From assembly GCA_963847785.1 (NCBI GenBank), contig CAWKBE010000010.1, positions 66,831 through 130,830 on the forward strand: a stretch of 64,000 bases of DNA, given 5' to 3'. The notes beneath the pieces are model-generated. The model made no database searches and had not been told where the DNA came from. It saw only the letters and a list, made by a program, of their open reading frames with translations. Positions 43,806-62,334 of the stretch are shown piece by piece (positions within the stretch are counted from its first letter, which is position 1; each line of letters begins with the position of its first letter). Made by a program: the position numbers and the translations under genes. The stretch comes from an uncultured Alphaproteobacteria bacterium. Lineage in GTDB: Bacteria; Pseudomonadota; Alphaproteobacteria; Rhizobiales; Xanthobacteraceae.

Positions 43806-45017
43806 CTAACGCATCCCCGCTTTCGATTTCCGCACCACCGTCGCCAGCGATTCGCTCAGCGCACTCGGGCTCAGCGGCTTGCGCAGATAAAAATCCATCC
43901 CCGCCGCGCGCGCGGCATCCTCGTCACCGGCTTCGGTCCGCCCGGAAATGCCGACGATCGCCGTTTGCCCGGAGCCGCCTGCGAGCGCGCGGATTCGGCG
44001 CGTCGTCTCGAGGCCGTCGATCCCGGGAAGCGTCACGTCCATCAGCACCGCATCGTAACCGTGCGTCACCGCCGCGACCGCTTCCTCGCCCGAGCCGGCG
44101 AAATCGGCACGGTGGCCAAGCTCGGTGAGGATCGTGTTGAGAATGACCCGTCCGTAAGCGTTATCCTCGACGCACAGGACCGCGAGGCGCCGCGGCGGAG
44201 CCACCGCGCGCCGCTCCGGCGCGGTGCCGGTAACGTCAGAGGGGGCGATGGAAAACACGGCCGAAAAACGAAACAATGAACCACGGCCGCGCGCGCTGGC
44301 GATGGTAAGGTTGCCGCCCATCAGCGTCGCCAGCGCCTTGGCCACGGCGAGGCCGAGCCCTGTGCCGCCGTAGCGGCGGGCAATATCCGCATTCGCCTGC
44401 GTGAACGGACGGAATAGCCGCTTGATCTCGGTTGGGTTCAGCCCAATGCCGCTGTCGGTAACGGCAAAGACGAGCTTCGCGCGTCCGCGCGGCAGGCGCG
44501 CGGAGCGGACGTCGATCCGCACAGCGCCGCGCTCGGTGAACTTCACCGCATTGTCGATGAGATTCTCCAGTACCGCCCGCAATCGCACCGCGTCGCCGAC
44601 GAGGCGCTCGGGCAAATCCTCCCCCATTGTCACCTCGGCAACAAGGCCCTTCGTTTCCGCGCGCCCGGAAAGCGAATCAGCCAGCAACTCGACAAGACGG
44701 CGTGGAGCGAAAACCTGTTGCCTGAGTTTGAGAGAGCCCGCGTCCGCTTCCACCGCGTCGATCATCAACGTCGTCAGCGCCGCGAGATGCTCGGCGCTGC
44801 CAATGATGCCGGAAGCCCAACGCCGCTCGCGTTCGCCGAGATTGGAGCTGGCCAGAAGTTCGCCGAGCGCAAGGATGCCGGTGAGCGCGGTGCGGATGTC
44901 GTGCGCGTAGGCCACGAGTGACGCTTCGGTCGCCTGCGCGACCGGCGCCCGCCGCCGCGCCCGGCGACGCACCGTCTTCGCCGCGCACTTTTTTTGGCTC
45001 GATTTTAGACGCGCCAT
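43806..45017 (-). CDS. hybrid sensor histidine kinase/response regulator without recognisable input domain
   Basis: HisKA H-box AYAHDIRTALTGI, HATPase N/G boxes (NLIDNAVKFT, DSGIGL, GGTGLGLAV), and a C-terminal receiver (VLCVEDN...LMDVTLPGIDG...KP). Confidence 0.88.
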   Translation of the reverse strand: MARLKSSQKKCAAKTVRRRARRRAPVAQATEASLVAYAHDIRTALTGILALGELLASSNLGERERRWASGIIGSAEHLAALTTLMIDAVEADAGSLKLRQQVFAPRRLVELLADSLSGRAETKGLVAEVTMGEDLPERLVGDAVRLRAVLENLIDNAVKFTERGAVRIDVRSARLPRGRAKLVFAVTDSGIGLNPTEIKRLFRPFTQANADIARRYGGTGLGLAVAKALATLMGGNLTIASARGRGSLFRFSAVFSIAPSDVTGTAPERRAVAPPRRLAVLCVEDNAYGRVILNTILTELGHRADFAGSGEEAVAAVTHGYDAVLMDVTLPGIDGLETTRRIRALAGGSGQTAIVGISGRTEAGDEDAARAAGMDFYLRKPLSPSALSESLATVVRKSKAGMR

Positions 45018-49649: not shown

Positions 49650-49678
49650 TTGACATCGTTGGATAATTTGCCTATTGT
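49650..49678 (+). promoter_or_regulatory. sigma-70-like promoter upstream of the integrase gene
   Basis: TTGACA (49650-49655), 17-bp spacer, TATTGT (49673-49678); 35 bp upstream of the integrase ATG. Confidence 0.5.
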
Positions 49679-49712
49679 CGCGTCAATTGTTGCATTTTGT
49701 CGCGAGGATCGG

Positions 49713-50807
49713 ATGTCAATCAGAAAGCGCAGTTGGGAGGGCGGTGGCGAGCAGAAAACCGCATGGGTCGTCGATTATGTTGATCAGCACGGCAAGCGCC
49801 GGCTGAAGACGTTCGATCTGAAAAAGGATGCCGATGCGTGGGCGACGAATGCTCTGCACGAAGTCGCGCAGGGCATTCACGCGCGCGATGTTAAGACCGC
49901 TATCACCGACATTGTTGATGCGTGGATCAGCCATTGCATTGACGAGGGCCTGGAACGCAGCACCATCGAGCAGCGGAAGCGGCATCTGAAATTGCACATC
50001 GCCCCATTCATCGGGCGAGTGAAATTGAGTGAGCTGACGACGCCGATGGTCAACCACTACATGGATCGGCTCCGCGACGCCGGGCGCTCAGTTGCCATGC
50101 GCCGGAAGATCCTGACAAGCCTCAGCACCGCGCTATCGTTCGCCCGCGGCCGCGGACTTGTCGCGCAGAATGTTGCCCTAGGCATTAAGGTCCGGTCGGA
50201 TGATAGGCACAAGGCCACCGGCCCGCTCAAGGCCGGGCGGGATTTTCCAACCAAGGCAGAATTAAAACTCCTGATCGATCGCGCGCCGGAACGCTGGCGC
50301 CCCTTCATCGTCACCGCGATTTTCACCGGCATGCGCGCCAGTGAGCTGCGCGGGCTGCGTTGGTGCGATGTCGATCTCGACGCCGGAACTATCCACGTGG
50401 CGCAGCGCGCGGATACGTGGGGCAAAATGGGGTCCCCGAAGTCGGCTGCGGGGACTAGGGATATTCCGCTGACACCGATGGTCGTCAATACGCTCCGGCA
50501 ATTGGAATCCGGGGGCGAGCTGGTATTCATGAATAACGCCGGCCGGGTTATCGCCTATAGCAATTTTCACACGTATGTTTGGCAGCCGCTGATCAAGCAC
50601 TGCGGACTGAGTCACGAATTTCACAGCCTTAGACATGCAGCAGCGAGCCTGTTTATCGAGCAGTTGGGCTGGTCGCCGAAGCGTATCCAAGCTGTGCTGG
50701 GTCATTCGTCCATCACCATGACTTACGACAGGTACGGGCATCTGTTCGAGAGCAAGGATGATGGCACCGCGATGAAGCGGCTGGAAGCTGCGATCATCGC
50801 CGCCTGA
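49713..50807 (+). CDS. tyrosine-type site-specific recombinase (phage integrase family)
   Basis: 364 aa with an N-terminal SAM-like/arm-binding part and a catalytic domain with TGMRASELRGLRW (Arg I), HSLRHAAAS (H-x-x-R) and GHSSITMTYDRYGH (His/Tyr). Confidence 0.92.
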   Translation: MSIRKRSWEGGGEQKTAWVVDYVDQHGKRRLKTFDLKKDADAWATNALHEVAQGIHARDVKTAITDIVDAWISHCIDEGLERSTIEQRKRHLKLHIAPFIGRVKLSELTTPMVNHYMDRLRDAGRSVAMRRKILTSLSTALSFARGRGLVAQNVALGIKVRSDDRHKATGPLKAGRDFPTKAELKLLIDRAPERWRPFIVTAIFTGMRASELRGLRWCDVDLDAGTIHVAQRADTWGKMGSPKSAAGTRDIPLTPMVVNTLRQLESGGELVFMNNAGRVIAYSNFHTYVWQPLIKHCGLSHEFHSLRHAAASLFIEQLGWSPKRIQAVLGHSSITMTYDRYGHLFESKDDGTAMKRLEAAIIAA

Positions 50808-50911: not shown

Positions 50912-51313
50912 ATAAACCCGAGCCGTGTCCGGTGGTGAGATCGGAGTGACTCGGAAAAGCAAGACTTAGGCACAGTGAAGCGCCTTTATCTGCTTTCCGA
51001 GGGACTGTCTGTCCGTATGGAGCCGACCGTCGCTTATCGGAAGCCGCCCGCTTTCTGGCTTGCGCGGACAAACTAGGGCGTCTTCTTCAAACAAGCCGTT
51101 TGCCAGTGGTGGGCACGCCCTCATCTTTCGATGAGCAAGACCCACGGCGCCTATCACTAGTCTCACCTAAGCGCCTCTCGGCCCGCAACTGCACGCCTTT
51201 TATAACGAGTAACGTCATTTTACAGGTGGGGCCCAAGATCAAAACCGATCATCGCGGCTCTGCTCGATTCGCGCCGCACCGTATGATCAACAAACGCCCG
51301 CGCGCGGCGCGCA

Positions 51314-51349
51314 ATGAAGCGGCTGGAAGCGGCAATTGTTGCGGCCTAG
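51314..51349 (+). pseudogene. orphan copy of an integrase gene 3' end (last 11 codons)
   Basis: ATGAAGCGGCTGGAAGCGGCAATTGTTGCGGCCTAG (MKRLEAAIVAA-stop) versus integrase 50772-50807 ATGAAGCGGCTGGAAGCTGCGATCATCGCCGCCTGA (MKRLEAAIIAA-stop). A stop lies 10 codons upstream, so only the tail survives. Confidence 0.7.
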
Positions 51350-52236: not shown

Positions 52237-52269
52237 TGCGCTGAAATCTATAAACCCTTGGTGCTCTTA

Positions 52270-53718
52270 ATGTTTCCAGAGCACGACGACCCGCTGACTT
52301 ACGAGGACCTGCAGGCGCTCGCCGCCGATCTCGGCCGGCCGTTGAAGACGCTATTTGCCCAGGCCGACTCCACTGACCCCTGGATGGCCGGAGTGCCGGC
52401 GCGCAAAGCCAAGGCGGAATGGCTCGCCGCTCTCTGGCGGCAATATGGCGCCGCTCCAGGAACGCACATCCGGCGCTTCCATTATTTGCTGGTCTCGCAA
52501 CCGGACGTGCGGATGCCGGAAGGCGAGCGCTACCTCAACACCGACGAGTGCTACAAATTTCTCACCGCTGCCTCAATCGCCGCGCGGCACCTCGACCTTA
52601 TCGACGCGCGCGACGTCGCCGACCAGCGCAACGAACCGGCAAAAATCAATTACGACGCCGAGGAGAAGGAGGCCGCGGTCGACGTCGATGGTGACCTTGA
52701 TCGATACGCGGCGCCGGAGTTCGAGCTCCCGACGCTCACAGTCACCGCGCCGAAGATCCCACAGCCCTATGTCGTCTCAATCTGGATCGAGAAGTCCACC
52801 ATGAACGACGTCATCGATCCGCTGGCCGCGCGCTACGGCGTCAACGTGCTCCCCGGTACCGGCGAGACCTCGATCACGCGCTGTATCGAACTCGCCGATC
52901 GTGCCGACGCGGTCGGGCGCCCTGTGCGCGTCCTCTACGTCACCGACTTTGATCCGGCCGGTCGGTCCATGCCGCTCGCGGCCGCGCGTAAGATCGAGTT
53001 TGAACTGCGCAAGAACATGCCCCACCTCGACGTCCAAGTACGCGATATCGCGCTGACGCTTGAGCAGTGTCGCCGATATCGTCTACCGCGGACGCCGATC
53101 AAGAAAGGCGAGAGCCGCGGTGCCAAATTCGAAGCGCGCTTCGGCGAGGGCGCAACCGAGCTCGACGCGCTCGAAGCACTACATCCCGGTGAACTGGCGC
53201 GGATTCTGGAACGCGAGATACTTCGCTATTACGACACCGATCTTGCCACCGAGGTTGAGAGCGTCAGGAGCGAAGCCCAGACCGAGCTCGGCCGCATCAC
53301 TACCGAGGTTCACGATCAGCACGTCGATCAGATCCAGGAATTGCGCGACGAGCACGAAAGGGTGCTGGCGGCGGTCAACGCCTACAGGGTAAAGGCGCGG
53401 CCGATCTTCGAGCTGATCCGGACCGACCTTGAGAGCGCGGCGCCGAGCTTCGATTGGCCCGATGGCAGTTTTGCGGCCGCCGAGGACGAAGACCCGCTGT
53501 TTGATTCAACGCGTGATTACATCGAGCAGATCGATCGTTACAAAGAACACAAGAACGAGCCGACCGAGCGCTGGTCCGAAACGCGCGTCTGCGCGCACTG
53601 CAAAGCAAAGTTCACCGCGCTCAAGAGCCACGCGCGGTTCTGCAGCAAAAAATGCGGCAATGATTGGCATTATCAGCAGCAGCCGTTAAAGCGGCAACGG
53701 AAGGCAGCGCGGCCATGA
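52270..53718 (+). CDS. Top6A/Spo11-like protein: putative 5Y-CAP + Toprim domains, coiled coil and C-terminal zinc ribbon
   Basis: HIRRFHYLLV (R-x-x-x-Y as in the Top6A/Spo11 catalytic Tyr motif, Tyr at 52483-52485). About 100 aa later comes VSIWIEKSTMNDV (Toprim Glu), LPGTGETSITRCIEL and VLYVTDFDPAGRSM (DxDPxG, 52945-52962). C-terminal CAHCKAKF...RFCSKKCGNDWHY. Start ATG 52270 (TTG 52258/GTG 52261 also possible). Confidence 0.55.
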   Translation: MFPEHDDPLTYEDLQALAADLGRPLKTLFAQADSTDPWMAGVPARKAKAEWLAALWRQYGAAPGTHIRRFHYLLVSQPDVRMPEGERYLNTDECYKFLTAASIAARHLDLIDARDVADQRNEPAKINYDAEEKEAAVDVDGDLDRYAAPEFELPTLTVTAPKIPQPYVVSIWIEKSTMNDVIDPLAARYGVNVLPGTGETSITRCIELADRADAVGRPVRVLYVTDFDPAGRSMPLAAARKIEFELRKNMPHLDVQVRDIALTLEQCRRYRLPRTPIKKGESRGAKFEARFGEGATELDALEALHPGELARILEREILRYYDTDLATEVESVRSEAQTELGRITTEVHDQHVDQIQELRDEHERVLAAVNAYRVKARPIFELIRTDLESAAPSFDWPDGSFAAAEDEDPLFDSTRDYIEQIDRYKEHKNEPTERWSETRVCAHCKAKFTALKSHARFCSKKCGNDWHYQQQPLKRQRKAARP

Positions 53719-54065
53719 CCCGGCGGCGCTCCCTGATCAACAAAACAGAGAGAACCATGACTAAAAAAGATGACCAACACATTTTGACCTATCGGGTGGG
53801 AAAATGGCCGATAGCTAAAAAAGATGACGTGTGGACCTATCGGCGGGTGAACCTAGCGCGCGAGAACCCCGAGAAGCCTGTCGTTGACGAGGATACCGGC
53901 GCGCGGATACCCGATCGCGAGTGCGTGACAGCTTCCGGGGCACTGCTGGCAACAGCACCTTGGCGGATGCGGGTGATTGCATTTTTCTACCTCAACTTTC
54001 TTCGGCTGCGCGGTCACGGCCTGAACCCCTTTTATTGGTGGTGGATTTTCAGGGGTAAACCGTGA
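53715..54065 (+). CDS. hypothetical protein with C-terminal hydrophobic helix
   Basis: ATGA overlap with the previous gene. 116 aa with an APWRMRVIAFFYLNFLRL helix. No known domain. Confidence 0.45.
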   Translation: MTRRRSLINKTERTMTKKDDQHILTYRVGKWPIAKKDDVWTYRRVNLARENPEKPVVDEDTGARIPDRECVTASGALLATAPWRMRVIAFFYLNFLRLRGHGLNPFYWWWIFRGKP

Positions 54066-54376: not shown

Positions 54377-56722
54377 GTGCCTGGTAAGGGCCATATTCGG
54401 GGCTGGAATCGTAAGCGGAAACAGCGCCGCCTAGCCGCCGACGTACGACTTTCCGTTGAGCTGTTCGGCCAGTACTTGGCCGACTTCCTCTCCCAGCCGC
54501 CAGTGGATGACGTGGAGGCACAACGGGACGAATGGCGGCCCACACGGCCGCCTGGAGATTTGGGTGCGTTGGTGTCCAAGTTAGAGCCGTCTGACCTAGC
54601 GCAGGCGGTATTGGCACCACTTTTACACCGTATTCATTCGGGTTGGGCGGGCGGCAAAATCAAGAAAGGCCAGCGCGACCGTCACCGCGCCGAACTGTGT
54701 GAGATCGTTGGGCGCCATGTCCACCGGCTTTTATTGTATCGGCATTTGATCGAGACCGGCACGCACCGACCCCTATTGGCCGCAATCACCAAACCCAAGC
54801 GCCGCAAGTATCCCAAGGGTGCGCCGCGGCCACCGCGCGGGCGACCGAAGAAGGTTCGAACGGCCTTTCAATTTGATGATTGGGTTGACATTGACTTCGT
54901 CTATGTCGGCGACTGGTTGGTTGACTGCGCCACGAGTCTCGACTGCTTTGACTTCAACGAATACGGGCTTCCTTGCATTGCCGAGCATTGGAAGGCGGAA
55001 ATTCGCGACCTGTACCGTGAGGCGCTTCGCGGGCCTATCACCGTACTGCCGAGGCGGGAGCCGCCACCGTTACGTACTGGGTGGTACAACGACCGAGGTG
55101 TGGCGTTCTGCAACCGCCTTGAGGCACGCGAGGCTATTGATGACGCCTTCAAGAAGACCATCACCATACTCGACGAGAGCAGGATTACGTTTAACGAGAA
55201 CCTGGAAGCGAACAAGGAAAGCATGGTTGAGACCGAAGTCCCCGGCGATTTCGTTAGGCAGCACGTTGCCGGCATCCACGCCTTGGAGTGCGTGCCGCTG
55301 CGTATCGATCCGCTAATGCGCGATCTGGTAGAGCAGTTTGGCACCGATGCTAAGAAGCGTCGAAAGATTGGCTGGAAGCTGGAGCGTGACCGCTTCGCCG
55401 TTCGCGGCGATCTTGACCATGCCGATGCGCTCGGCGAAGAAACCTTTCATATCGAATATGGGGTTGACTACCGCGGCCGGCTTGATCCCGTGACACATCT
55501 CCACTTCGCTCGCGACGATCGCATCCGCAGCCTGTTCCGGTTTGCCAACGGCAAGCGGTTAGGTGGGCGTCTCGCCGGGCGAGCAGGTGGTTTCACCGAT
55601 CTAGAAATGTTGGAGTTCAACATCGCTAACCGTTATGGCGTCGTCGACAAGAAGCCGTGGGCTGATCGACTAGCGTGGGTACGCGAGCACGCCGGCATGA
55701 TCGAGGAGGTCGCGGCGCGGCCATTCAGTTCGTCCAGTTTGTGGTCGAAGGCAGACGAGCCGTTTCAGTTCGTCAGTGCGTGCCGTGAGTGGATGGCGGC
55801 GCGCGAGGACCCTAACTTTGAGACAACACTGCCACTCTGTTGGGACGGAAGTTCTAATGGTTTTCAGCACAAAGTTATGCTCTCCCGCGATCACGAGGGT
55901 GCTGTTTACGTCAACCTGGTTAACGCCCCGTCTGGCCAACCGCAGGATATTTACCTGCACGTTGCCAAAGGCGTCATCGAGAAACTGCATGAGACCACCG
56001 ACAAGGAGGCGGCGTGGTGGCGCGAGCGTATTGGCAATTGGTCGCAACAGGATTTGCGAAAACTATTTAAGCAGCCGGTCATGACGATTCCCTACAACGC
56101 CGACCGCAGTATCCCTTCAGGCATATCGAAGGCGCTTCAGTCCATAGACCGGGGTGAGAAGCCACCGGACGGTCATGCGGGATATCTACAACGGATGATG
56201 ATGGGTGTTGTTCAAGATTTGATGCCGCGCGCCATGGAGCTGCGGTCGTGGATAACAAAACTCGCCACCCAGTGCAGTATTGAGGGGCGCTATGTCAAAT
56301 GGGTTAGTCCCAGCGGATTTCCGGTTGAGAACCACCACGAGACGCTCTCAATTGGATGCGTCTACGGTATAGATGGCACAAAATTCAACGTCACCAAGCC
56401 CGGTGGACTTGATACCGTAGGCTGCGTGAATGGCCTCGTTCCTAACTTTATTCACTCGCTGGAAGTTGCACATTTAGTTCGGGTTGCGTGTGCCACAAAG
56501 GCGGAGGGTATCGAAACGCTACCACTCCACGACTGCTACGCCGCCCTGGCGCCAGACGGCAGCGCCCTGCACCGGATTATTCGGCGCGAGTTGTTTCTGA
56601 TGTACCGTGAAAGAGACTACATCCACGAGCTGCGCGCCGCCAACGGTGTGGTGATGCCACTGCCACCATACGGGGATCTGAACCTCGAACTCATACCTGA
56701 CGCAGAATACAGTTTTGCTTGA
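54377..56722 (+). CDS. single-subunit DNA-dependent RNA polymerase, T7/T3/SP6 (phage-type) family
   Basis: 781 aa. LPLCWDGSSNGFQHKVMLSRD...VNLV...QDIYLHVAKGV (motif A). RKLFKQPVMTIPYN (motif B). KWVSPSGFPVENHHE, VPNFIHSLEVAHL, LPLHDCYA (motif C), and tail PLPPYGDLNLELIPDAEYSFA versus T7 ...PALPAKGNLNLRDILESDFAFA (T7 sequence from memory). Confidence 0.93.
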   Translation: MPGKGHIRGWNRKRKQRRLAADVRLSVELFGQYLADFLSQPPVDDVEAQRDEWRPTRPPGDLGALVSKLEPSDLAQAVLAPLLHRIHSGWAGGKIKKGQRDRHRAELCEIVGRHVHRLLLYRHLIETGTHRPLLAAITKPKRRKYPKGAPRPPRGRPKKVRTAFQFDDWVDIDFVYVGDWLVDCATSLDCFDFNEYGLPCIAEHWKAEIRDLYREALRGPITVLPRREPPPLRTGWYNDRGVAFCNRLEAREAIDDAFKKTITILDESRITFNENLEANKESMVETEVPGDFVRQHVAGIHALECVPLRIDPLMRDLVEQFGTDAKKRRKIGWKLERDRFAVRGDLDHADALGEETFHIEYGVDYRGRLDPVTHLHFARDDRIRSLFRFANGKRLGGRLAGRAGGFTDLEMLEFNIANRYGVVDKKPWADRLAWVREHAGMIEEVAARPFSSSSLWSKADEPFQFVSACREWMAAREDPNFETTLPLCWDGSSNGFQHKVMLSRDHEGAVYVNLVNAPSGQPQDIYLHVAKGVIEKLHETTDKEAAWWRERIGNWSQQDLRKLFKQPVMTIPYNADRSIPSGISKALQSIDRGEKPPDGHAGYLQRMMMGVVQDLMPRAMELRSWITKLATQCSIEGRYVKWVSPSGFPVENHHETLSIGCVYGIDGTKFNVTKPGGLDTVGCVNGLVPNFIHSLEVAHLVRVACATKAEGIETLPLHDCYAALAPDGSALHRIIRRELFLMYRERDYIHELRAANGVVMPLPPYGDLNLELIPDAEYSFA

Positions 56723-56730
56723 GGAATCGC

Positions 56731-56946
56731 ATGACAAGAGTTCAACAAATAATCGATCAGCTCGAAGAGTTGCATCGGCAAGCGCACGAAATCTTCGACG
56801 CGCGCGTTGAGGTTATTTTAGCCGGACAACCCTATGGTACGAGTCTCGGCGCAACCAAGGTGAATTGCATCTTTGCGCCGGCTGGACGGACGCTCGACTA
56901 CATCAAGGCGTTGAAGAACTTGCGGGACGGAAAGACCGCAAAGTAG
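56731..56946 (+). CDS. hypothetical protein
   Basis: 71 aa from ATG 56731, just after the RNAP stop (MTRVQQIIDQLEELHRQAHEIF...). Followed by a strong hairpin. Confidence 0.45.
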   Translation: MTRVQQIIDQLEELHRQAHEIFDARVEVILAGQPYGTSLGATKVNCIFAPAGRTLDYIKALKNLRDGKTAK

Positions 56947-56972
56947 CCGCCTACAATAGTTCATCCAGTAAC

Positions 56973-56995
56973 AAGGCCCGCCTCGCGCGGGCCTT
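56973..56995 (+). terminator. stem-loop terminator candidate
   Basis: AAGGCCCGC-CTCGC-GCGGGCCTT, a perfect 9-bp stem 27 nt after the stop at 56946. Only a weak T tract follows (CGCATTTCTG). Confidence 0.5.
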
Positions 56996-57086
56996 CGCAT
57001 TTCTGCGTCAACCGACGCGGAAACACGCCGGCATTGTGTCGGCATTCTAAATCAACGGCCCTGCAGCACGGGGCGATGGTGGACCT

Positions 57087-57251
57087 ATGCATTACATCAA
57101 TCTTAGCAGTGGGCGCTGTCTGCATTGCGAAGCCACTGCGTTCCGATCAACGAAAACCCTGGCTTATTGCTTGGTGTGCGGCGTTCTCTTTAGGCGCTCG
57201 CACGAGCCGAGCCAGCTTGCATTCAATCTAACCTCTTTGGCCTCTACCTGA
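57087..57251 (+). CDS. possible small zinc-ribbon protein (54 aa)
   Basis: MHYINLSSGRCLHCEATAFRSTKTLAYCLVCGVLFRR... with CxxC-x13-CxxC. Not in the track (<60 aa) and no clear RBS. Confidence 0.25.
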   Translation: MHYINLSSGRCLHCEATAFRSTKTLAYCLVCGVLFRRSHEPSQLAFNLTSLAST

Positions 57252-57324
57252 GGCGAAACGTTGTCGCGCGCCCGGTGCCGCTCGACGATGCGTTTAATGC
57301 ACCGAATCACGAAAGCAGAAAACC

Positions 57325-57972
57325 ATGTCAACTAATGAAGAAGCTATGCCTTGGGCCTTAACCGAGGTTCAATCTAAAGCAATAACGGATCGTCAGATCG
57401 CGAAAGCACTCGCAAAGTTTGCCGAAGATGACGGTGGTGGTCCCGGTGGACCGTTGCTCAAGTTCAAGAAGGACGAACATTTTATTCTCGGCGCCGACAA
57501 GATTGCGGAGGGCACCGAGTACATTGCCCATCCGCAAGAAGTCCGTAAGGGCTGGAGTAAGTTCGAGAACAAAAAGCTCGTCGACGAAAAGACCGGCAAG
57601 CCGGTTCTCGGGTTTGTCGTTCCCGAGCGCGAGGAGTTGGGCGATCTCGACCCCAAGAAATGGCCGAAGAACGACGCGGGCCAACCTGCTGATCCGTGGG
57701 TGAAGCAGTCGTTCTTGCCATTGGAAAACGTTACGACCGGACAACTGGTTGTGTTCGTGACGAGTTCCCATGGCGCTCGCAGTGCGATCGCGACCTTGTG
57801 CGGAGCGGCCGCGCGGAATGTCCATCGCGGCAATCCGCGCATTCGCCTTCGCGTCGGTTCCTACAAACACTCGAAATTCGGGCGTGTTCAGGTGCCGGAA
57901 TTCACGGTGATTGGTTGGGACGATCCGCCCATCTCTGCGGACGAGCCGTTCAACGACCAATTGTCTCTGTAA
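57325..57972 (+). CDS. hypothetical protein (positional candidate for a phage ssDNA-binding protein)
   Basis: 215 aa, coding-like, with an acidic/aromatic C-terminal tail ISADEPFNDQLSL. Lies between RNAP and DNAP where T7-like phages carry gp2.5. No motif-level support. Confidence 0.5.
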   Translation: MSTNEEAMPWALTEVQSKAITDRQIAKALAKFAEDDGGGPGGPLLKFKKDEHFILGADKIAEGTEYIAHPQEVRKGWSKFENKKLVDEKTGKPVLGFVVPEREELGDLDPKKWPKNDAGQPADPWVKQSFLPLENVTTGQLVVFVTSSHGARSAIATLCGAAARNVHRGNPRIRLRVGSYKHSKFGRVQVPEFTVIGWDDPPISADEPFNDQLSL

Positions 57973-58006
57973 CTAACTAATCTATCTTTGTTCAACAGCG
58001 TGCGCG

Positions 58007-58025
58007 GGGAGTTTAGGAAACTCCC
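58007..58025 (+). terminator. short stem-loop after ORF 57325-57972
   Basis: GGGAGTTT-AGG-AAACTCCC, preceded by the all-frame stop string TAACTAACTAA (57970-57980). Confidence 0.35.
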
Positions 58026-58052
58026 TTCGCCGCCAACCATGTGAGCTTTGAA

Positions 58053-58661
58053 ATGTCGATAATTACCTCAACATCCTCATCCACCGCAGCGCCGATTAAC
58101 GTATTCGATTTCGAGGCGATCAGATTACCGCCGAACTTTGAACGCGAAGCCGGTGTGCGCAAGCAACTCACGCTGGTGCGGGTCCGCCAGCCGCGAAAGC
58201 AGGAATGGGTTCGAGTTCATCCGGAGCATCGCGCCGAAGTGGCCACGATTGTCTTCAAGGAGAACGAAGAAGCCAAGCCGGAGATCTACCTGGTCGCACC
58301 GGACGTCGCGATGCAACTGAGCGACGAAATTACCTATCAGACGATTTACCTCGCAATCAATCGGCAGGGTGAACCGTTCCTCTGGCCATGCCGCAAACCG
58401 AAATTAGAAAGCCGAAGCGGCGATATCGCTGCGACGTCAAGGATCGAAGCCGCCGAGACGGCCATGACGCGCCAAGTGCGGGTGCAGTGGCGATCGCCGG
58501 CTTTCGAGATGTCATTCCGCGATGGCCACATCCCCGATGTCGATCCGATTTGGCCAGACAAGCCTTTCGGTGAGCTGGTCGAGATCGCGTTTCATCGTAC
58601 CGGAATGTTCATCCACGACCCTAATCATCAGGTGATCAAGATTTTGCAGGGGAGAAACTAA
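58053..58661 (+). CDS. hypothetical protein
   Basis: About 202 aa (ATG 58053; GTG 58041 possible). Its stop is 1 nt before the DNAP start. No recognisable domain. Confidence 0.5.
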   Translation: MSIITSTSSSTAAPINVFDFEAIRLPPNFEREAGVRKQLTLVRVRQPRKQEWVRVHPEHRAEVATIVFKENEEAKPEIYLVAPDVAMQLSDEITYQTIYLAINRQGEPFLWPCRKPKLESRSGDIAATSRIEAAETAMTRQVRVQWRSPAFEMSFRDGHIPDVDPIWPDKPFGELVEIAFHRTGMFIHDPNHQVIKILQGRN

Positions 58662-58662
58662 T

Positions 58663-60390
58663 ATGATTCTCCCTTACAAACACATCATTGCAGTCGACTT
58701 CGAGTTTGAATTTGGCGGCCATGAAGGCAATCCGCCGCGACCGGTCTGCATGGTCGCGAAGGAGCTACGTACGGGCCAAGAATGGCGGGTGTAGCGCGGG
58801 GACTTCGGGCCCTCGCCTCCGTTCCCTACCGGGCCGGACAGCTTGTTTGTAGCGTACTACGCTAGCGCGGAGTTAGGTTGCTTCCACGCACTCGGCTGGC
58901 AACCGCCGGCGAACGTGCTCGATCTCTTCACCGAATTCCGGGCACGCACTAATGGCACCGATTGGCTGGAGGGCCGCAGTCTGATCGCCGCCCTACAGTA
59001 TTTTAACGTCGACGGCATCGGCGCCACCGAGAAGCAAGGCATGCGCGAGCTAGTCCTTAGAGGGCCACCATGGACCGAACAGCAGCGCGCCGACATTCTG
59101 GATTACTGCGCCAGCGATGTTTACGCTCTCGAACGTCTACTGCCGCGGATGCTGCCCGAGATTGATCTGCCCCGTGCGCTCCAGCGTGGGCGCTATATGC
59201 GAGCGGCGGCGGCGATGGAATATGCCGGCGTGCCGATCGACGTCGATACGCTTAAGGAGCTACGCGATCATTGGGAGGATATAAAGGAACAACTGATCGC
59301 CGATGTTGATCGGGACTACGGCGTGTTCGACGGTACCACTTTTAAGACGACGCTATTCGAGGAATATCTAATAAGACAGGGCATCCCGTGGCCGCGATTG
59401 CCGTCTGGGCGTTTAGCTCTTGACCGCGACACCTTCAAAGAAATGGGCCGCGGCTATCCAATCATCGGCCCATTAAGGGAGCTAAAGCATGCGCTGAGCG
59501 AAATGCGATTGAACGCACTCCAAGTCGGCGAGGATGGCAGGAATCGGTGTTTGCTCAGCGCGTTTGGCACAAAGACTGGAAGAAATAGTCCGAGCAATAC
59601 GAAATTCATTTTTGGTCCCAGCGTATGGCTGCGTGGGTTGGTTAAACCGGAGCTCGGGCACGCAGTCGCCTATATCGATTGGAGTTCACAAGAGGTCGGC
59701 ATCGCCGCGGCGGTGTCTGGCGATTTGGCGATGCAATCCGATTACCAAAGCGGCGATGTTTATCTCGCGTTCGGTAAGAGTGCCGGAATCCTGCCACTGG
59801 ATGCCACCAAGGAGTCACATGGCGCGCAACGTGATGCATTAAAGGCGTGCGTACTGGGGCTTCAATACGGCATGGGCGAGGAAACATTGGCGGAACGGAT
59901 CGGCAAGCCGCGCATCGTTGCCCGCGAATTAATACGCGCGCATCAGCAGCGTTACCGGAAATTCTGGGACATGGCTGACAGCGTGATTTCGATCGCGATG
60001 GATCACCGTCCCGTGCAGACGGTAGGCGGTTGGCCCCTACAGGTCTGCTCTGATCCGAGCCCGAACTCGGTGATGAATTTTCCCATGCAAGCCAATGGTG
60101 CCGAGATGCTCCGGCTGGCCTGCTCCATGGCGACAGAGCGCGGTGTCGAGGTGCATGCCCCCGTCCACGACGCGGTGCTGATCGGCAGTTCGATTGAGCA
60201 CATTGATCGCGACGTCGAGGCCATGCGCGGGATTATGGAGGAGGCGTCCCGGCTGGTATTGGGCGGCTTCACCATTCCGACCGAAGCCAAGATCATCCGC
60301 TATCCCGATCGCTACATGGACAAGCGCGGTGTGGTGATGTGGGAGCGCGTGATGCGGTTACTTGCCGATCTGCGCAAGGCGGTGGCGTGA
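58663..60390 (+). pseudogene. family-A DNA polymerase with 3'-5' exonuclease domain, interrupted by one in-frame amber codon (58792-58794)
   Basis: ATG 58663 MILPYKHIIAVDFEFEFGG (Exo I) ...QEWRV-TAG-RGDFG...FVAYYASAELGCF (Exo II), YCASDVYAL (Exo III). Pol motif A AYIDWSSQEVGIAA, motif B RDALKACVLGLQYGMG, motif C VHAPVHDAVL. Same frame on both sides of the TAG. Confidence 0.85.
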
Positions 60391-60914: not shown

Positions 60915-61742
60915 TTAGGCTGCCAAGCGGACTGGCAGTTCGTTGAAGTAGGCTTGATCGGGTGTGGTGCCGTCAAGGCTCGAATGCGGTCTCCGGCCGT
61001 TGTAGAAGTCCAGGTATTTGCCGATAGAAGAGCGGGCCTCGCTGACACTGTCGTAGGCCTTCAGATACACCTCCTCATATTTGACGCTGCGCCACAGCCG
61101 CTCGACGAAGACGTTGTCTCGCCAAGCTCCTTTCCCGTCCATGCTGATCGCAATGTCGTTGTTGGCGAGCACGCCGGTGAACGCCGAGCCCGTGAACTGC
61201 GAACCCTGATCGGTATTGAAGATGTCCGGCTTGCCGTGACGAGCCAGAGCATCCTCCAGCGTCTCGACGCAGAATGCCGCCTCCATCGTGATCGACAGCC
61301 GCCATGACAGCACGCGACGGCTGAACCAGTCGAGCACCACGGCCAGGTAGACGAAGCCCCGCGCCATCGGGATGTAGGTGATGTCCATCGCCCACACCTG
61401 GTTCGGCCGCGTGACCGCCGTGGCGCGCAACAGATACGGATAGATCTTGTGGCCGGGCCCGGGCTTCGTGGTGCGCGGACGGCGATAGAGCGCCTCTATC
61501 CCCATCCGTTTCATCAGCGTTTTGACATGCCGACGGCCGATCTTGCACCCCTCAGCGACCAGCAAGCCTCTCAACATCCGCGAGCCGGCGAAAGGGGACT
61601 CCAAATGCAGCCGGTCGAGACGCCGCATGATTGCGAGGTCGGCTTCCGGTACTGGGCGCGGCAGGTAGTAGACGCTGCCACGGCTGATGCACAGAACGTC
61701 CGCCTGCTTGGTGATCGGCAAATTGTGCTCACGGTCGATCAT
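60915..61742 (-). CDS. IS3-family transposase OrfB (DDE integrase-like catalytic domain)
   Basis: WAMDITYI (D), FNTDQGSQFTG (D), DNVFVERLWRSVKYEE (E), and RPHSSLDGTTP. Confidence 0.92.
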   Translation of the reverse strand: MIDREHNLPITKQADVLCISRGSVYYLPRPVPEADLAIMRRLDRLHLESPFAGSRMLRGLLVAEGCKIGRRHVKTLMKRMGIEALYRRPRTTKPGPGHKIYPYLLRATAVTRPNQVWAMDITYIPMARGFVYLAVVLDWFSRRVLSWRLSITMEAAFCVETLEDALARHGKPDIFNTDQGSQFTGSAFTGVLANNDIAISMDGKGAWRDNVFVERLWRSVKYEEVYLKAYDSVSEARSSIGKYLDFYNGRRPHSSLDGTTPDQAYFNELPVRLAA

Positions 61743-62050
61743 CGCTTTGCGCTCAGCAATCCCGCCTTGCTGAGCGCTCCTTCCAAAAAATCGTTCTCCA
61801 GCGTCAGCGCTCCGATCTTGGCGTGCAACGACTTCACGTCAACGGCCGGTTGCGCTGCTCCGTTGCCGCCGCCGGGACCAAAAACATCGGCAGCCCCACC
61901 CTCAAGCTGCGCCTTCCACGATGTGATCTGGTTGGGGTGGACGTCGAACTGCTCTGCCAGCTGAGTCAATGTTCGATCGCCCTTGACGGCGGCAAGCGCC
62001 ACCTTTGCTTTGAAGGCCGGTGTGTGGTTCCGGCGCGGTCGTCTTGTCAT
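61739..62050 (-). CDS. IS3-family transposase OrfA (HTH)
   Basis: MTRRPRRNHTPAFKAKVALAAVKGDRTLTQLAEQFDVHPNQITSWKAQL. ATG 62050 chosen over the track start at 62104. Confidence 0.9.
   Translation of the reverse strand: MTRRPRRNHTPAFKAKVALAAVKGDRTLTQLAEQFDVHPNQITSWKAQLEGGAADVFGPGGGNGAAQPAVDVKSLHAKIGALTLENDFLEGALSKAGLLSAKR
61749..61790 (-). promoter_or_regulatory. programmed -1 ribosomal frameshift signal of the IS (slippery T TTT TTG + hairpin)
   Basis: On the minus strand, GAT TTT TTG is followed 6 nt later by GCGCTCAGCAA-GGCGGGA-TTGCTGAGCGC (perfect 11-bp stem, 61749-61777). The -1 frame reads without stops into the OrfB ATG (..FFGRSAQQGGIAERKAMIDREH). Confidence 0.7.
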
Positions 62051-62334
62051 GGTCTCTCCTGATTCGCGGCGCACAGCGTGCCCGCCGTCAGGCAGAAACT
62101 CCACTTAGCGTCTTGTGCAGATTTCCGAGGCCACCTCTGTATCCCTGTCTTATGTCTTGGGTCTTAGCTTATGTCTTTTGTCAAACAAACCGCGCGGCGA
62201 AGTGCGCTGGCTTACTGCTTCCAGAATTCTTATTGGACCACCCGCGAGACGAACCGCCGGGCTACTCACGACCGCGGGATCAAGCCCGGCGGCATTCGGG
62301 ATCGGGCGCGCCGGCGAATAAGCAGGAGGCGCCC

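Follow-up and report, generated by a model that had tools for sequence, protein, structure and literature searches.

What can the A subunit of a type IIB DNA topoisomerase do on a mobile element that supplies no ATPase partner for it? This question is raised by an open reading frame (ORF) of 482 amino acids (aa) in a 64,000-nucleotide (nt) stretch of an alphaproteobacterial contig (CAWKBE010000010.1; the whole stretch is called the window below), where it lies on an element with its own integrase and phage-type polymerases. The initial annotation of this DNA had read the ORF as a Spo11/Top6A-like, A-subunit-only protein. Here, we found that the gene belongs to a distinct long form of the Mini-A branch, and we consider it likely, if well short of certain, that it encodes a relative of type IIB topoisomerase A subunits that lacks an ATPase partner and acts as an accessory DNA breakage/rejoining factor.

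Identity of the ORF and its links to Mini-A and Top6A

The studied ORF runs on the (+) strand from an ATG at 52270 to a stop codon at 53716–53718. The same start is used by public gene calls, which give an identical 482-aa product on four metagenomic contigs, and an in-frame alternative TTG at 52258 would give 486 aa. The residues first reported as Tyr76, Glu178, and Asp230/Asp232 follow the TTG numbering and become Tyr72, Glu174, and Asp226/Asp228 when counted from the ATG. Every motif quoted in the initial annotation (RRFHY, IWIEKS, GTGETS..R, VTDFDPAG, and CAHC...CSKKC) was found in the ORF, namely as R68-R-F-H-Y72, I-W-I-E174-K-S, G196-T-G-E-T-S201..T-R204, V-T-D226-F-D228-P-A-G231, and C441-A-H-C444 ... 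C458-S-K-K-C462. The Tyr-to-Glu spacing, said to match Top6A, is 102 residues in the studied protein versus 96 in one Top6A representative of our alignment.

Residues 165–350 of the protein match phrog_6247, labeled "DNA topoisomerase" (E = 2.9e-26). The same PHROG is matched by the ~296-aa Mini-A of Nipunavirus phage JG054 (E = 1.6e-136) and by the ~301-aa Mini-A of Listeria phage LWP01 (E = 2.6e-126), and it is the classic Mini-A family, for which Takahashi et al. (2020, PMC7671362) gave Pseudomonas phage NP1 and Listeria monocytogenes as exemplars. When the long family was compared by hhalign with a profile of 34 classic Mini-As, the probability was 99.8% (E = 1.1e-27) over 253 columns (residues 66–346), with R68/Y72 paired with R39/Y43, E174 with E123, D226/D228 with D176/D178, and E297 with E244. 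Both results back the earlier view of a stand-alone protein of the Mini-A kind. What had gone unnoticed is that the protein is not a typical Mini-A: the sequence comparisons point to a distinct long subfamily, and we file it as a variant, not a plain member, because its 482 aa include additional conserved modules at both termini. The first description of Mini-A dates from 2019/2020 (PMC7671362), and its identification here is not in itself a new kind of system; new are the long-form subfamily, its extra modules, its size, its breadth across bacteria and archaea, and its absence from curated libraries and sequenced phage isolates.

Scans of the protein against Pfam, NCBIfam, and PADLOC gave no family match, a Foldseek search of the viral BFVD library produced nothing significant, and phmmer/hmmsearch of PDB sequences with the protein or with the long-form and classic Mini-A profiles did not reach Top6A. 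In a Foldseek search of the PDB, by comparison, ranks 1–8 were all Top6A chains (1d3y, 9o0g, 2q2e, 9o7o, 9o8p, and 2zbk), with E-values of 2.4e-6 to 1.3e-3, a probability of 1.0, and ~300 aligned columns; the next-best match outside Top6A had an E-value of 0.018. For profile comparison, 40 full-length Top6A representatives were aligned; they came from an exhaustive search that started from a Top6A fragment verified with Pfam and that was used because a word-index search with a Top6A fragment of Methanosarcina mazei gave only protein fragments. Against these representatives, the classic Mini-A profile reached a probability of 93.3% (E = 2.7e-7) in an alignment spanning R-x-L-Y-Y, the Toprim Glu and DxD, and the T2BI Glu, and the merged long and classic profile reached 94.6% (E = 6.5e-8) over Toprim residues 167–282. 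R68-R-F-H-Y72 thus pairs with RQLYY of classic Mini-A, which in turn pairs with R-x-L-Y-Y of Top6A, and hhalign likewise pairs the ELDAL box with WELDAL of Mini-A and with the conserved Top6A Glu. A comparison by hhalign with one yeast Spo11 sequence (PDB chain 8urq_A) was weak. Taken together, the fold ranking, the transitive profile links, and the catalytic register support the Top6A/Spo11-like, A-subunit-only interpretation.

Several observations weigh against seeing the protein as a Top6A relative active in DNA breakage. The Foldseek TM-scores of the full-length model are modest (0.37–0.47 on the target, with a root-mean-square deviation of 12–15 Å). Direct comparison of the long form with the Top6A profile was not significant (probability, 2.8%; E = 0.016), although the 190 aligned columns kept the same register despite the low probability, and the N-terminal region alone scored 73–90% against Top6A for classic Mini-A and 1–4% for the long form. 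An isolated model of residues 1–165, with a predicted local distance difference test score (pLDDT) of 84.6, had no significant PDB neighbor (best E = 1.4). The Pfam models PF04406 (TP6A_N), PF21180 (Toprim), and PF20768 were unmatched even at E ≤ 10, and genuine Top6A fragments do match the curated Top6A models. The residue before Tyr72 is His, versus the Tyr or Phe usual in Top6A and Mini-A; Elizabethkingia phage TCUEAP2 has a Mini-A with His at this position, too. The literature searched, up to 2026, reports no biochemical activity of any Mini-A. Finally, clustering of neighboring ORFs at 80 genomic long-form and 83 classic loci revealed no universal partner ("Mini-B"), and context therefore fixes no role. 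Of the two catalytic regions, the Toprim domain is firmly assigned; the assignment of the 5Y-CAP region draws on transitive homology and motif register, because the isolated N-terminal domain has no significant fold match.

An unrelated Toprim family, such as DnaG or OLD, had been named as the outcome that would overturn this identification, and it did not emerge from the fold or profile searches. DnaG-type primase structures matched only at E ≥ 0.039 with a probability of ≤0.47, DnaG primase and type IIA Toprim domains together appeared in the fold list only at E ≥ 0.037 (about 0.04–0.1), and the Pfam Toprim/primase models were unmatched. No OLD entry was among the top 50 fold matches. JetD is the Wadjet nuclease, built of DUF3322 and DUF2399, with a Top6A-type Toprim and no ATPase domain of its own. 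A relationship to its Toprim had been suggested as well; of this suggestion, the Top6A-type Toprim stands, but no tie to JetD itself was found, as the protein has neither DUF2399 nor DUF3322, no PADLOC match, and no JetD among its top 50 folds. The Toprim of one classic Mini-A gave a sub-threshold match to the JetD-type DUF2399 (21.3 bits versus a cut-off of 23.4), and no JetABC or SMC-like genes were present among the conserved neighbors of long-form loci.

Architecture and conservation of the long form

The AlphaFold (AF2) model of the whole protein (pLDDT, 88.8; predicted template modeling score, 0.80) and the alignments divide the protein as listed in Table 1. The N-terminal extension is conserved (D36, P37, and W51), and the alignment with classic Mini-A starts only at residue 66. 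In the following region, Tyr72 is the predicted catalytic tyrosine. The linker is modeled with lower confidence and is in part an insertion relative to classic Mini-A. Within the Toprim domain, E174, D226, and D228 form a predicted Mg2+ site, and in the segment behind it P273, P276, K278, and R283 are common to the long form and classic Mini-A. The coiled coil noted earlier corresponds to three long predicted helices (residues 325–390); this segment is variable in sequence, with pLDDT dropping to 60–68 at residues 361–380, and most of it is an addition, since the classic Mini-A alignment stops at residue 346.

Table 1. Coordinates of the long-form Mini-A gene, its domains and key codons, and associated genes in the window
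Feature	Residues	Position	Strand	Basis or content
Long-form Mini-A (Top6A-like) coding sequence	482 aa	52270..53718	+	ORF list and identical public gene calls
N-terminal extension	1-60	52270..52449	+	AF2 and alignments; helices 11-21, 25-28, 43-58
5Y-CAP-like region	61-135	52450..52674	+	motif register with Mini-A and Top6A; R68-R-F-H-Y72
Linker, predicted beta-hairpin	136-165	52675..52764	+	AF2, alignment; strands 136-140, 155-159
Toprim domain	166-262	52765..53055	+	Foldseek, profile comparison, conservation; E174-K175 (52789-52794), G198-E-T-S201..T203-R204, D226-F-D228-P-A-G231 (52945-52962)
Post-Toprim segment	263-320	53056..53229	+	L-P-R-T-P-I-K..R283; T2BI-type box G294-A-T-E297-L-D-A-L
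Helical, coiled-coil-like segment	325-390	53242..53439	+	AF2 helices 325-350, 352-365, 369-390
Conserved acidic motif module	396-430	53455..53559	+	W-P...DEDPLFDSTRDYIEQIDRYKEH; conservation, AF2 pLDDT 85-94
C-terminal zinc ribbon	438-465	53581..53664	+	C441-x2-C444 ... C458-x3-C462; conservation, weak profile matches
R68 codon	68	52471-52473	+	
Y72 codon	72	52483-52485	+	
E174 codon	174	52789-52791	+	
D226 codon	226	52945-52947	+	
D228 codon	228	52951-52953	+	
E297-D299 codons	297-299	53158-53166	+	
Cys441/444/458/462 codons	441-462	53590-53655	+	
Tyrosine integrase		49650..50807	+	phrog_1 E=1e-71; PF00589
ORF with excisionase-like helix-turn-helix pattern	81 aa	51657..51902	+	by eye only; no Pfam/PHROG match
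T7-type single-subunit RNA polymerase		54377..56722	+	phrog_414 E=7e-94; PF00940; downstream, same strand
Family-A DNA polymerase		58843..60390	+	phrog_17 E=5e-41; PF00476

Conservation was determined in a set of 216 family members taken from the clustered-collection search and from genomic and viral loci. The candidate catalytic tyrosine proved to be kept, with Tyr72 present in 203 of 204 aligned sequences and R68 in 191 of ~204, and at least 99% of the members retain each of the acidic residues (E174 in 214/214, D226 in 215/216, and D228 in 214/216). ELD is the most conserved element of the family: E297, L298, and D299 occur in all 216 members and the following Ala in 215. In the surrounding T2BI box (A-T-E-L-D-A-L, residues 295–301), the Trp of Mini-A is replaced by Thr (n = 161) or Val (n = 52) in 213/216. 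An alignment of 50 sequences (43–88% identity) showed Y72, E174, K175, D226, D228, and E297-L-D299 to be invariant. Because the catalytic residues are near-invariant in 216 homologs, the motif pattern is not due to chance.

The median length of the family is 474 aa. Of the 216 members, 193 have S413 and 199 have R415 in the acidic module, which is present in haloarchaeal plasmid homologs too. The acidic stretch of residues 396–430 has the family consensus EGDEDDDPLFDSTRDY; it is probably packed on the core, because it is modeled with high confidence (pLDDT 85–94), and we presume a likeness to the SSB C-terminal tip DDDIPF. The appended zinc ribbon (CxxC...CxxxC) is present as annotated and weakly matches the NinG and DUF2116 treble-clef families in a Pfam scan. 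Its region also matches the ribbon of PHROG "HNH endonuclease" families (E = 7e-6); an HNH nuclease identity was rejected, as these matches are limited to the ribbon (residues 422–473). The four ribbon cysteines could be aligned in only ~90 of the 216 members (~40%), so the ribbon is accessory, and the remaining architecture, to about residue 430, constitutes the family core.

Genomic context and distribution

On the element, an integrase is followed by small ORFs, the Mini-A ORF, the RNA polymerase gene, and the DNA polymerase gene, with a G+C content of 0.55–0.61 versus ~0.62–0.68 in the flanking chromosome. The initial annotation had seen no GHKL gene nearby, and indeed none is present among the ORFs of the element; the sole HATPase_c gene within 10 kb (43806–45017, [−] strand) lies beyond the element and encodes a hybrid histidine kinase of the host. 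It had also placed the gene on an RNA polymerase-encoding element. The polymerase is there, but the link is incidental: neither a T7-like RNA polymerase nor the studied DNA polymerase was found near any of 100 other homolog loci, and the polymerase association is therefore a trait of this particular lineage. The surroundings of the gene show no conspicuous promoter or terminator signal, nor are there informative repeats or iterons. The whole 64 kb contained no tRNA or transfer-messenger RNA (ARAGORN) and no Rfam family at gathering score, so that the element is not integrated at a recognizable RNA gene.

Other features of the element were recorded alongside. An ORF of 116 aa (53715–54065) overlaps the Mini-A stop codon by 4 nt, an arrangement suggestive of coupling; neither Pfam nor PHROG gave a match for it, and none of the 100 other Mini-A loci has a homolog. 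A homolog of the 81-aa ORF lies upstream of the Mini-A gene in one other locus (L013). The integrase gene ends in 38 nt (50768–50805, AMKRLEAAIIAA-stop) that recur with 82% identity 540 bp downstream (51310–51347, AMKRLEAAIVAA-stop); the second copy may be left over from another integrase gene or reflect an att-like duplication. No T7 gp4-like primase-helicase was recognized with PHROG or Pfam in the interval between the two polymerase genes (56722–58843), and the ORFs at 57325–57972 (215 aa) and 58041–58661 (206 aa) had no match in either. Just past the DNA polymerase gene and a 126-aa ORF, an IS3-family transposase pair is inserted in the element (60915–61742 and 61739–62104, both on the [−] strand; rve/HTH_21 plus HTH_Tnp_1). 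Related contigs vary here, the DNA polymerase being called as 546, 515, 310, or 88 aa, and because of these differences the element may be decaying or variable.

Next, we examined how widely the long form is distributed. At least 1,474 relatives were found in a metagenome/genome collection clustered at 90%; nearly all are unannotated, among the matches listed all but one lack a Pfam domain, and neither Pfam nor NCBIfam holds a model for the long-form branch. In a species-representative genome set, the long form occupies 80 or more loci, with carriers including Bradyrhizobium, Mesorhizobium, Phyllobacterium, Roseiarcus, Microvirga, Methylocella, and Roseovarius, many Ktedonobacteria and other Chloroflexota, Acidobacteriota, Bacillota, Bacteroidota, Verrucomicrobiota, Armatimonadota, Planctomycetota, and two archaeal metagenome-assembled genomes (MAGs). 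It was also found on 20 IMG/VR contigs, and none of 50,697 phage records contained it at full length, the best matches there being classic Mini-As with 23–33% identity over ≤59% of the query. Residence on mobile elements, as first proposed, is borne out by the integrase and phage-type polymerases here and by proviruses, integrative elements, and plasmids elsewhere. The branch is widespread among mobile elements that have integrated into the genomes of soil bacteria and archaea.

A tyrosine recombinase lies within 10 kb at 32 other long-form loci, and no GHKL gene was present among the conserved neighbor families of the 80 long-form loci. The same-strand replication genes vary from locus to locus and comprise a RepSA/REP_ORF2-type rolling-circle Rep, an AEP primase with a CHC2 finger, a D5_N primase-helicase, and a DnaB/AAA_25 helicase. 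Classic Mini-As reside among ligase, ThyX, RNase H, SSB-like, RecA-like, RecB-like, and helicase genes, and here, too, no partner is constant.

Three groups of carriers showed particular arrangements. At 11 alphaproteobacterial loci (L015, L017, L021, L023, L028, L037, L039, L046, L047, L057, and L065), a ~200–290-aa ORF with an HTH_23 domain and, by eye, a ParB-N-like DGxHR motif lies directly upstream and overlaps or abuts the Mini-A start, which suggests that it is translationally coupled to the long Mini-A gene. Ktedonobacteria, like other Chloroflexota, often have more than one copy per genome or MAG, as in Dictyobacter alpinus (L036 and L038) and in Ktedonobacterales MAGs (L019/L030, L022/L053, L025/L063, and L020/L035), and where enough flank is available their elements encode a RepSA/REP_ORF2-like Rep, an AEP primase with a CHC2 finger, and a tyrosine integrase, a gene set resembling that of actinomycete integrative elements. 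Haloarchaeal homologs are carried by plasmid pR1SE of Halorubrum lacusprofundi (NZ_KX687704.1; L189, 5983–7563) and by a plasmid of Natrinema sp. DC36 (L190, 5977–7470), where the long-form gene adjoins an annotated Cdc46/MCM-type replication protein gene. Both copies are full-length, with 27–30% identity over residues 3–441, and keep the N-terminal module as well as R68, H71, Y72, E174, D226, D228, E297, and DP(L/I)xDSxR; they lack the zinc ribbon.

Proposed role, alternatives, and known systems

The T2BI box of Top6A is part of the dimer interface, where its Glu contacts the Arg and Tyr of the other subunit through bonds (PMC7671362); mouse SPO11 alone cleaves DNA once dimerized, remains attached to the 5′ ends, and is able to reseal nicks (PMC11922746). 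By analogy, the long form is most likely a dimeric, Mg-dependent, ATP-independent DNA cleavage/rejoining enzyme acting through Tyr72. Two copies would pair via the conserved ELDAL (T2BI) box, probably assisted by the added C-terminal helices, which are a plausible built-in dimerization device, and the dimer would contain two hybrid active sites. In each, Tyr72 of one subunit, positioned by Arg68, would attack a DNA phosphodiester at the Mg2+ site of the other (Glu174, Asp226, and Asp228), and the outcome would be a reversible break with the protein held covalently on the 5′ end by a 5′-phosphotyrosyl link, with no ATP required. The zinc ribbon and the acidic DPLFDSxRDY module would most likely give DNA or partner contacts. 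As the gene lies upstream of the RNA polymerase gene of the element, T7 biology implies that the host polymerase would express it early. The protein likely serves as an accessory breakage/rejoining factor in the replication, recombination, or topology of the excised element and not as a replication initiator; we favor this accessory role because the long form co-occurs with dedicated initiators, primases, and helicases, and we rank it above the initiator role proposed for the Mini-A of skuldviruses.

The same position on the element would also suit a weapon in conflicts, either an early host-takeover or anti-competitor nuclease or a JetD-related, prophage-borne defense or anti-defense factor. 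In T7-like phages, host-takeover and anti-restriction genes occupy the position before the RNA polymerase, and the studied gene lies between integrase and RNA polymerase; the neighborhoods vary in a cassette-like manner, and the sub-threshold DUF2399 match of one classic Mini-A Toprim points in the same direction. The studied protein itself, however, has none of the JetD or PADLOC matches that a defense factor would lead one to expect, neither JetABC nor other defense genes are among the conserved neighbors, and in lytic phages classic Mini-A genes belong to replication/recombination modules, and we hence judge a role in conflict to be unlikely.

A replication initiator, which would nick or cut the origin and stay covalently attached in the manner of an HUH rolling-circle endonuclease, has been proposed for the Topo mini-A of Asgard skuldviruses, a proposal restated in 2026. 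Skuldviruses encode Mini-A and no other recognizable replication protein, the catalytic Tyr and metal site would formally suit the task, and the gene studied here lies in the early/replication region. Yet the long form stands alongside a RepSA/REP_ORF2-type Rep at nine loci and also accompanies AEP primases and D5-type or DnaB-type helicases, the present element has its own RNA and DNA polymerases, and no iterons or distinctive repeats flank the gene, which makes this alternative distinctly unlikely. It is very unlikely that the protein is a non-catalytic DNA-binding or scaffolding protein that merely retains a Top6A-like fold. Such a protein would agree with the lack of any reported Mini-A activity and with the requirement of Topo VI for its B subunit and ATP in A-subunit cleavage, but the Tyr, the Arg, the three acidic ligands, and the T2BI Glu are near-invariant in 216 sequences from bacteria and archaea, a pattern typical of an active enzyme. 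That the protein, with its Toprim domain and zinc ribbon, is a DnaG-type primase replacing the T7 gp4-like primase-helicase missing between the polymerase genes can be practically discounted, given the poor DnaG fold matches versus the 2.4e-6 of Top6A, the unmatched Pfam models, a ribbon that is C-terminal and found in only ~40% of the family, and conserved Tyr/Arg and ELDAL motifs that have no role in primases.

The accessory breakage/rejoining factor thus remains the preferred explanation. A bolder version, which we hold to be doubtful, is that the long form is a self-sufficient, constitutively dimeric prokaryotic counterpart of Spo11, in which the C-terminal helices would hold the dimer and ATPase-free, protein-linked double-strand breaks or resealable nicks would let integrative elements, plasmids, and proviruses of bacteria and archaea start recombination-dependent replication or recombination of their own DNA. 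If true, this would give a stand-alone type IIB A subunit its first enzymatic and biological function and would provide a living model of the ancestral Topo VI/Spo11 state. Mini-A is the third branch of the type IIB topoisomerases, and the built-in modules of the long form could supply the dimerization and DNA targeting that Spo11 gets from partners. With SPO11 cleavage switched on by dimerization alone, the long form is an attractive and tractable system in which to address whether an A subunit can act by itself and to what end mobile elements use programmed protein-linked breaks. The family, whose members are now labeled "hypothetical protein," merits a Pfam/NCBIfam model.

Among known systems, JetD resembles the long form in having a Top6A-type Toprim domain without an ATPase domain of its own and differs from it in that the long-form family has a strictly conserved CAP tyrosine. 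Topo VIII, a plasmid-borne fusion of B and A, likewise places an A-type CAP and Toprim module with a T2BI-type box on a mobile element; unlike the studied protein, it has a GHKL ATPase, a transducer, an RVELNAM box, and a conserved Arg three residues after the Tyr. Top6A is the top and sole significant structural match, is similar in the Toprim at profile level, and is in register with the long form at the catalytic Tyr/Arg, the metal ligands, the G..TR motif, and the T2BI Glu, whereas the long form differs from Top6A/Spo11 in its extra C-terminal modules and in the absence of a Top6B/TOP6BL partner from the contexts examined.

Classic Mini-A shares with the long form the R-x-x-aromatic-Y motif, E...DxDPxG, the ELDAL box, and the P-x-x-P-x-K...R segment, as well as the lack of a B subunit and carriage on mobile elements. 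The T2BI box reads xWELDAL in Mini-A, whereas Topo VIII has RVELNAM and Topo VI has R/KxExxA/S (PMC7671362). Core identity between the long form and classic Mini-A is ~24% (17–31%), versus ≥31% within either group, and the studied protein has 482 aa versus ~300 aa in classic Mini-A, which comprises only a partial CAP and Toprim. Compared with classic Mini-A, the long form has a conserved N-terminal extension without counterpart in the aligned region, insertions of ~9 and 11 residues in and after the CAP region, and three extra residues after ELDAL. It further adds ~135 C-terminal residues, which comprise helices, the acidic DPLFDSxRDY module (consensus pattern, W-P...D-P-L-F-D-S-x-R-D-Y...R-Y-K), and a variable tail, often with a zinc ribbon, and its signatures are RRxHY and (T/V)ELDAL where classic Mini-A has RQxYY and WELDAL.

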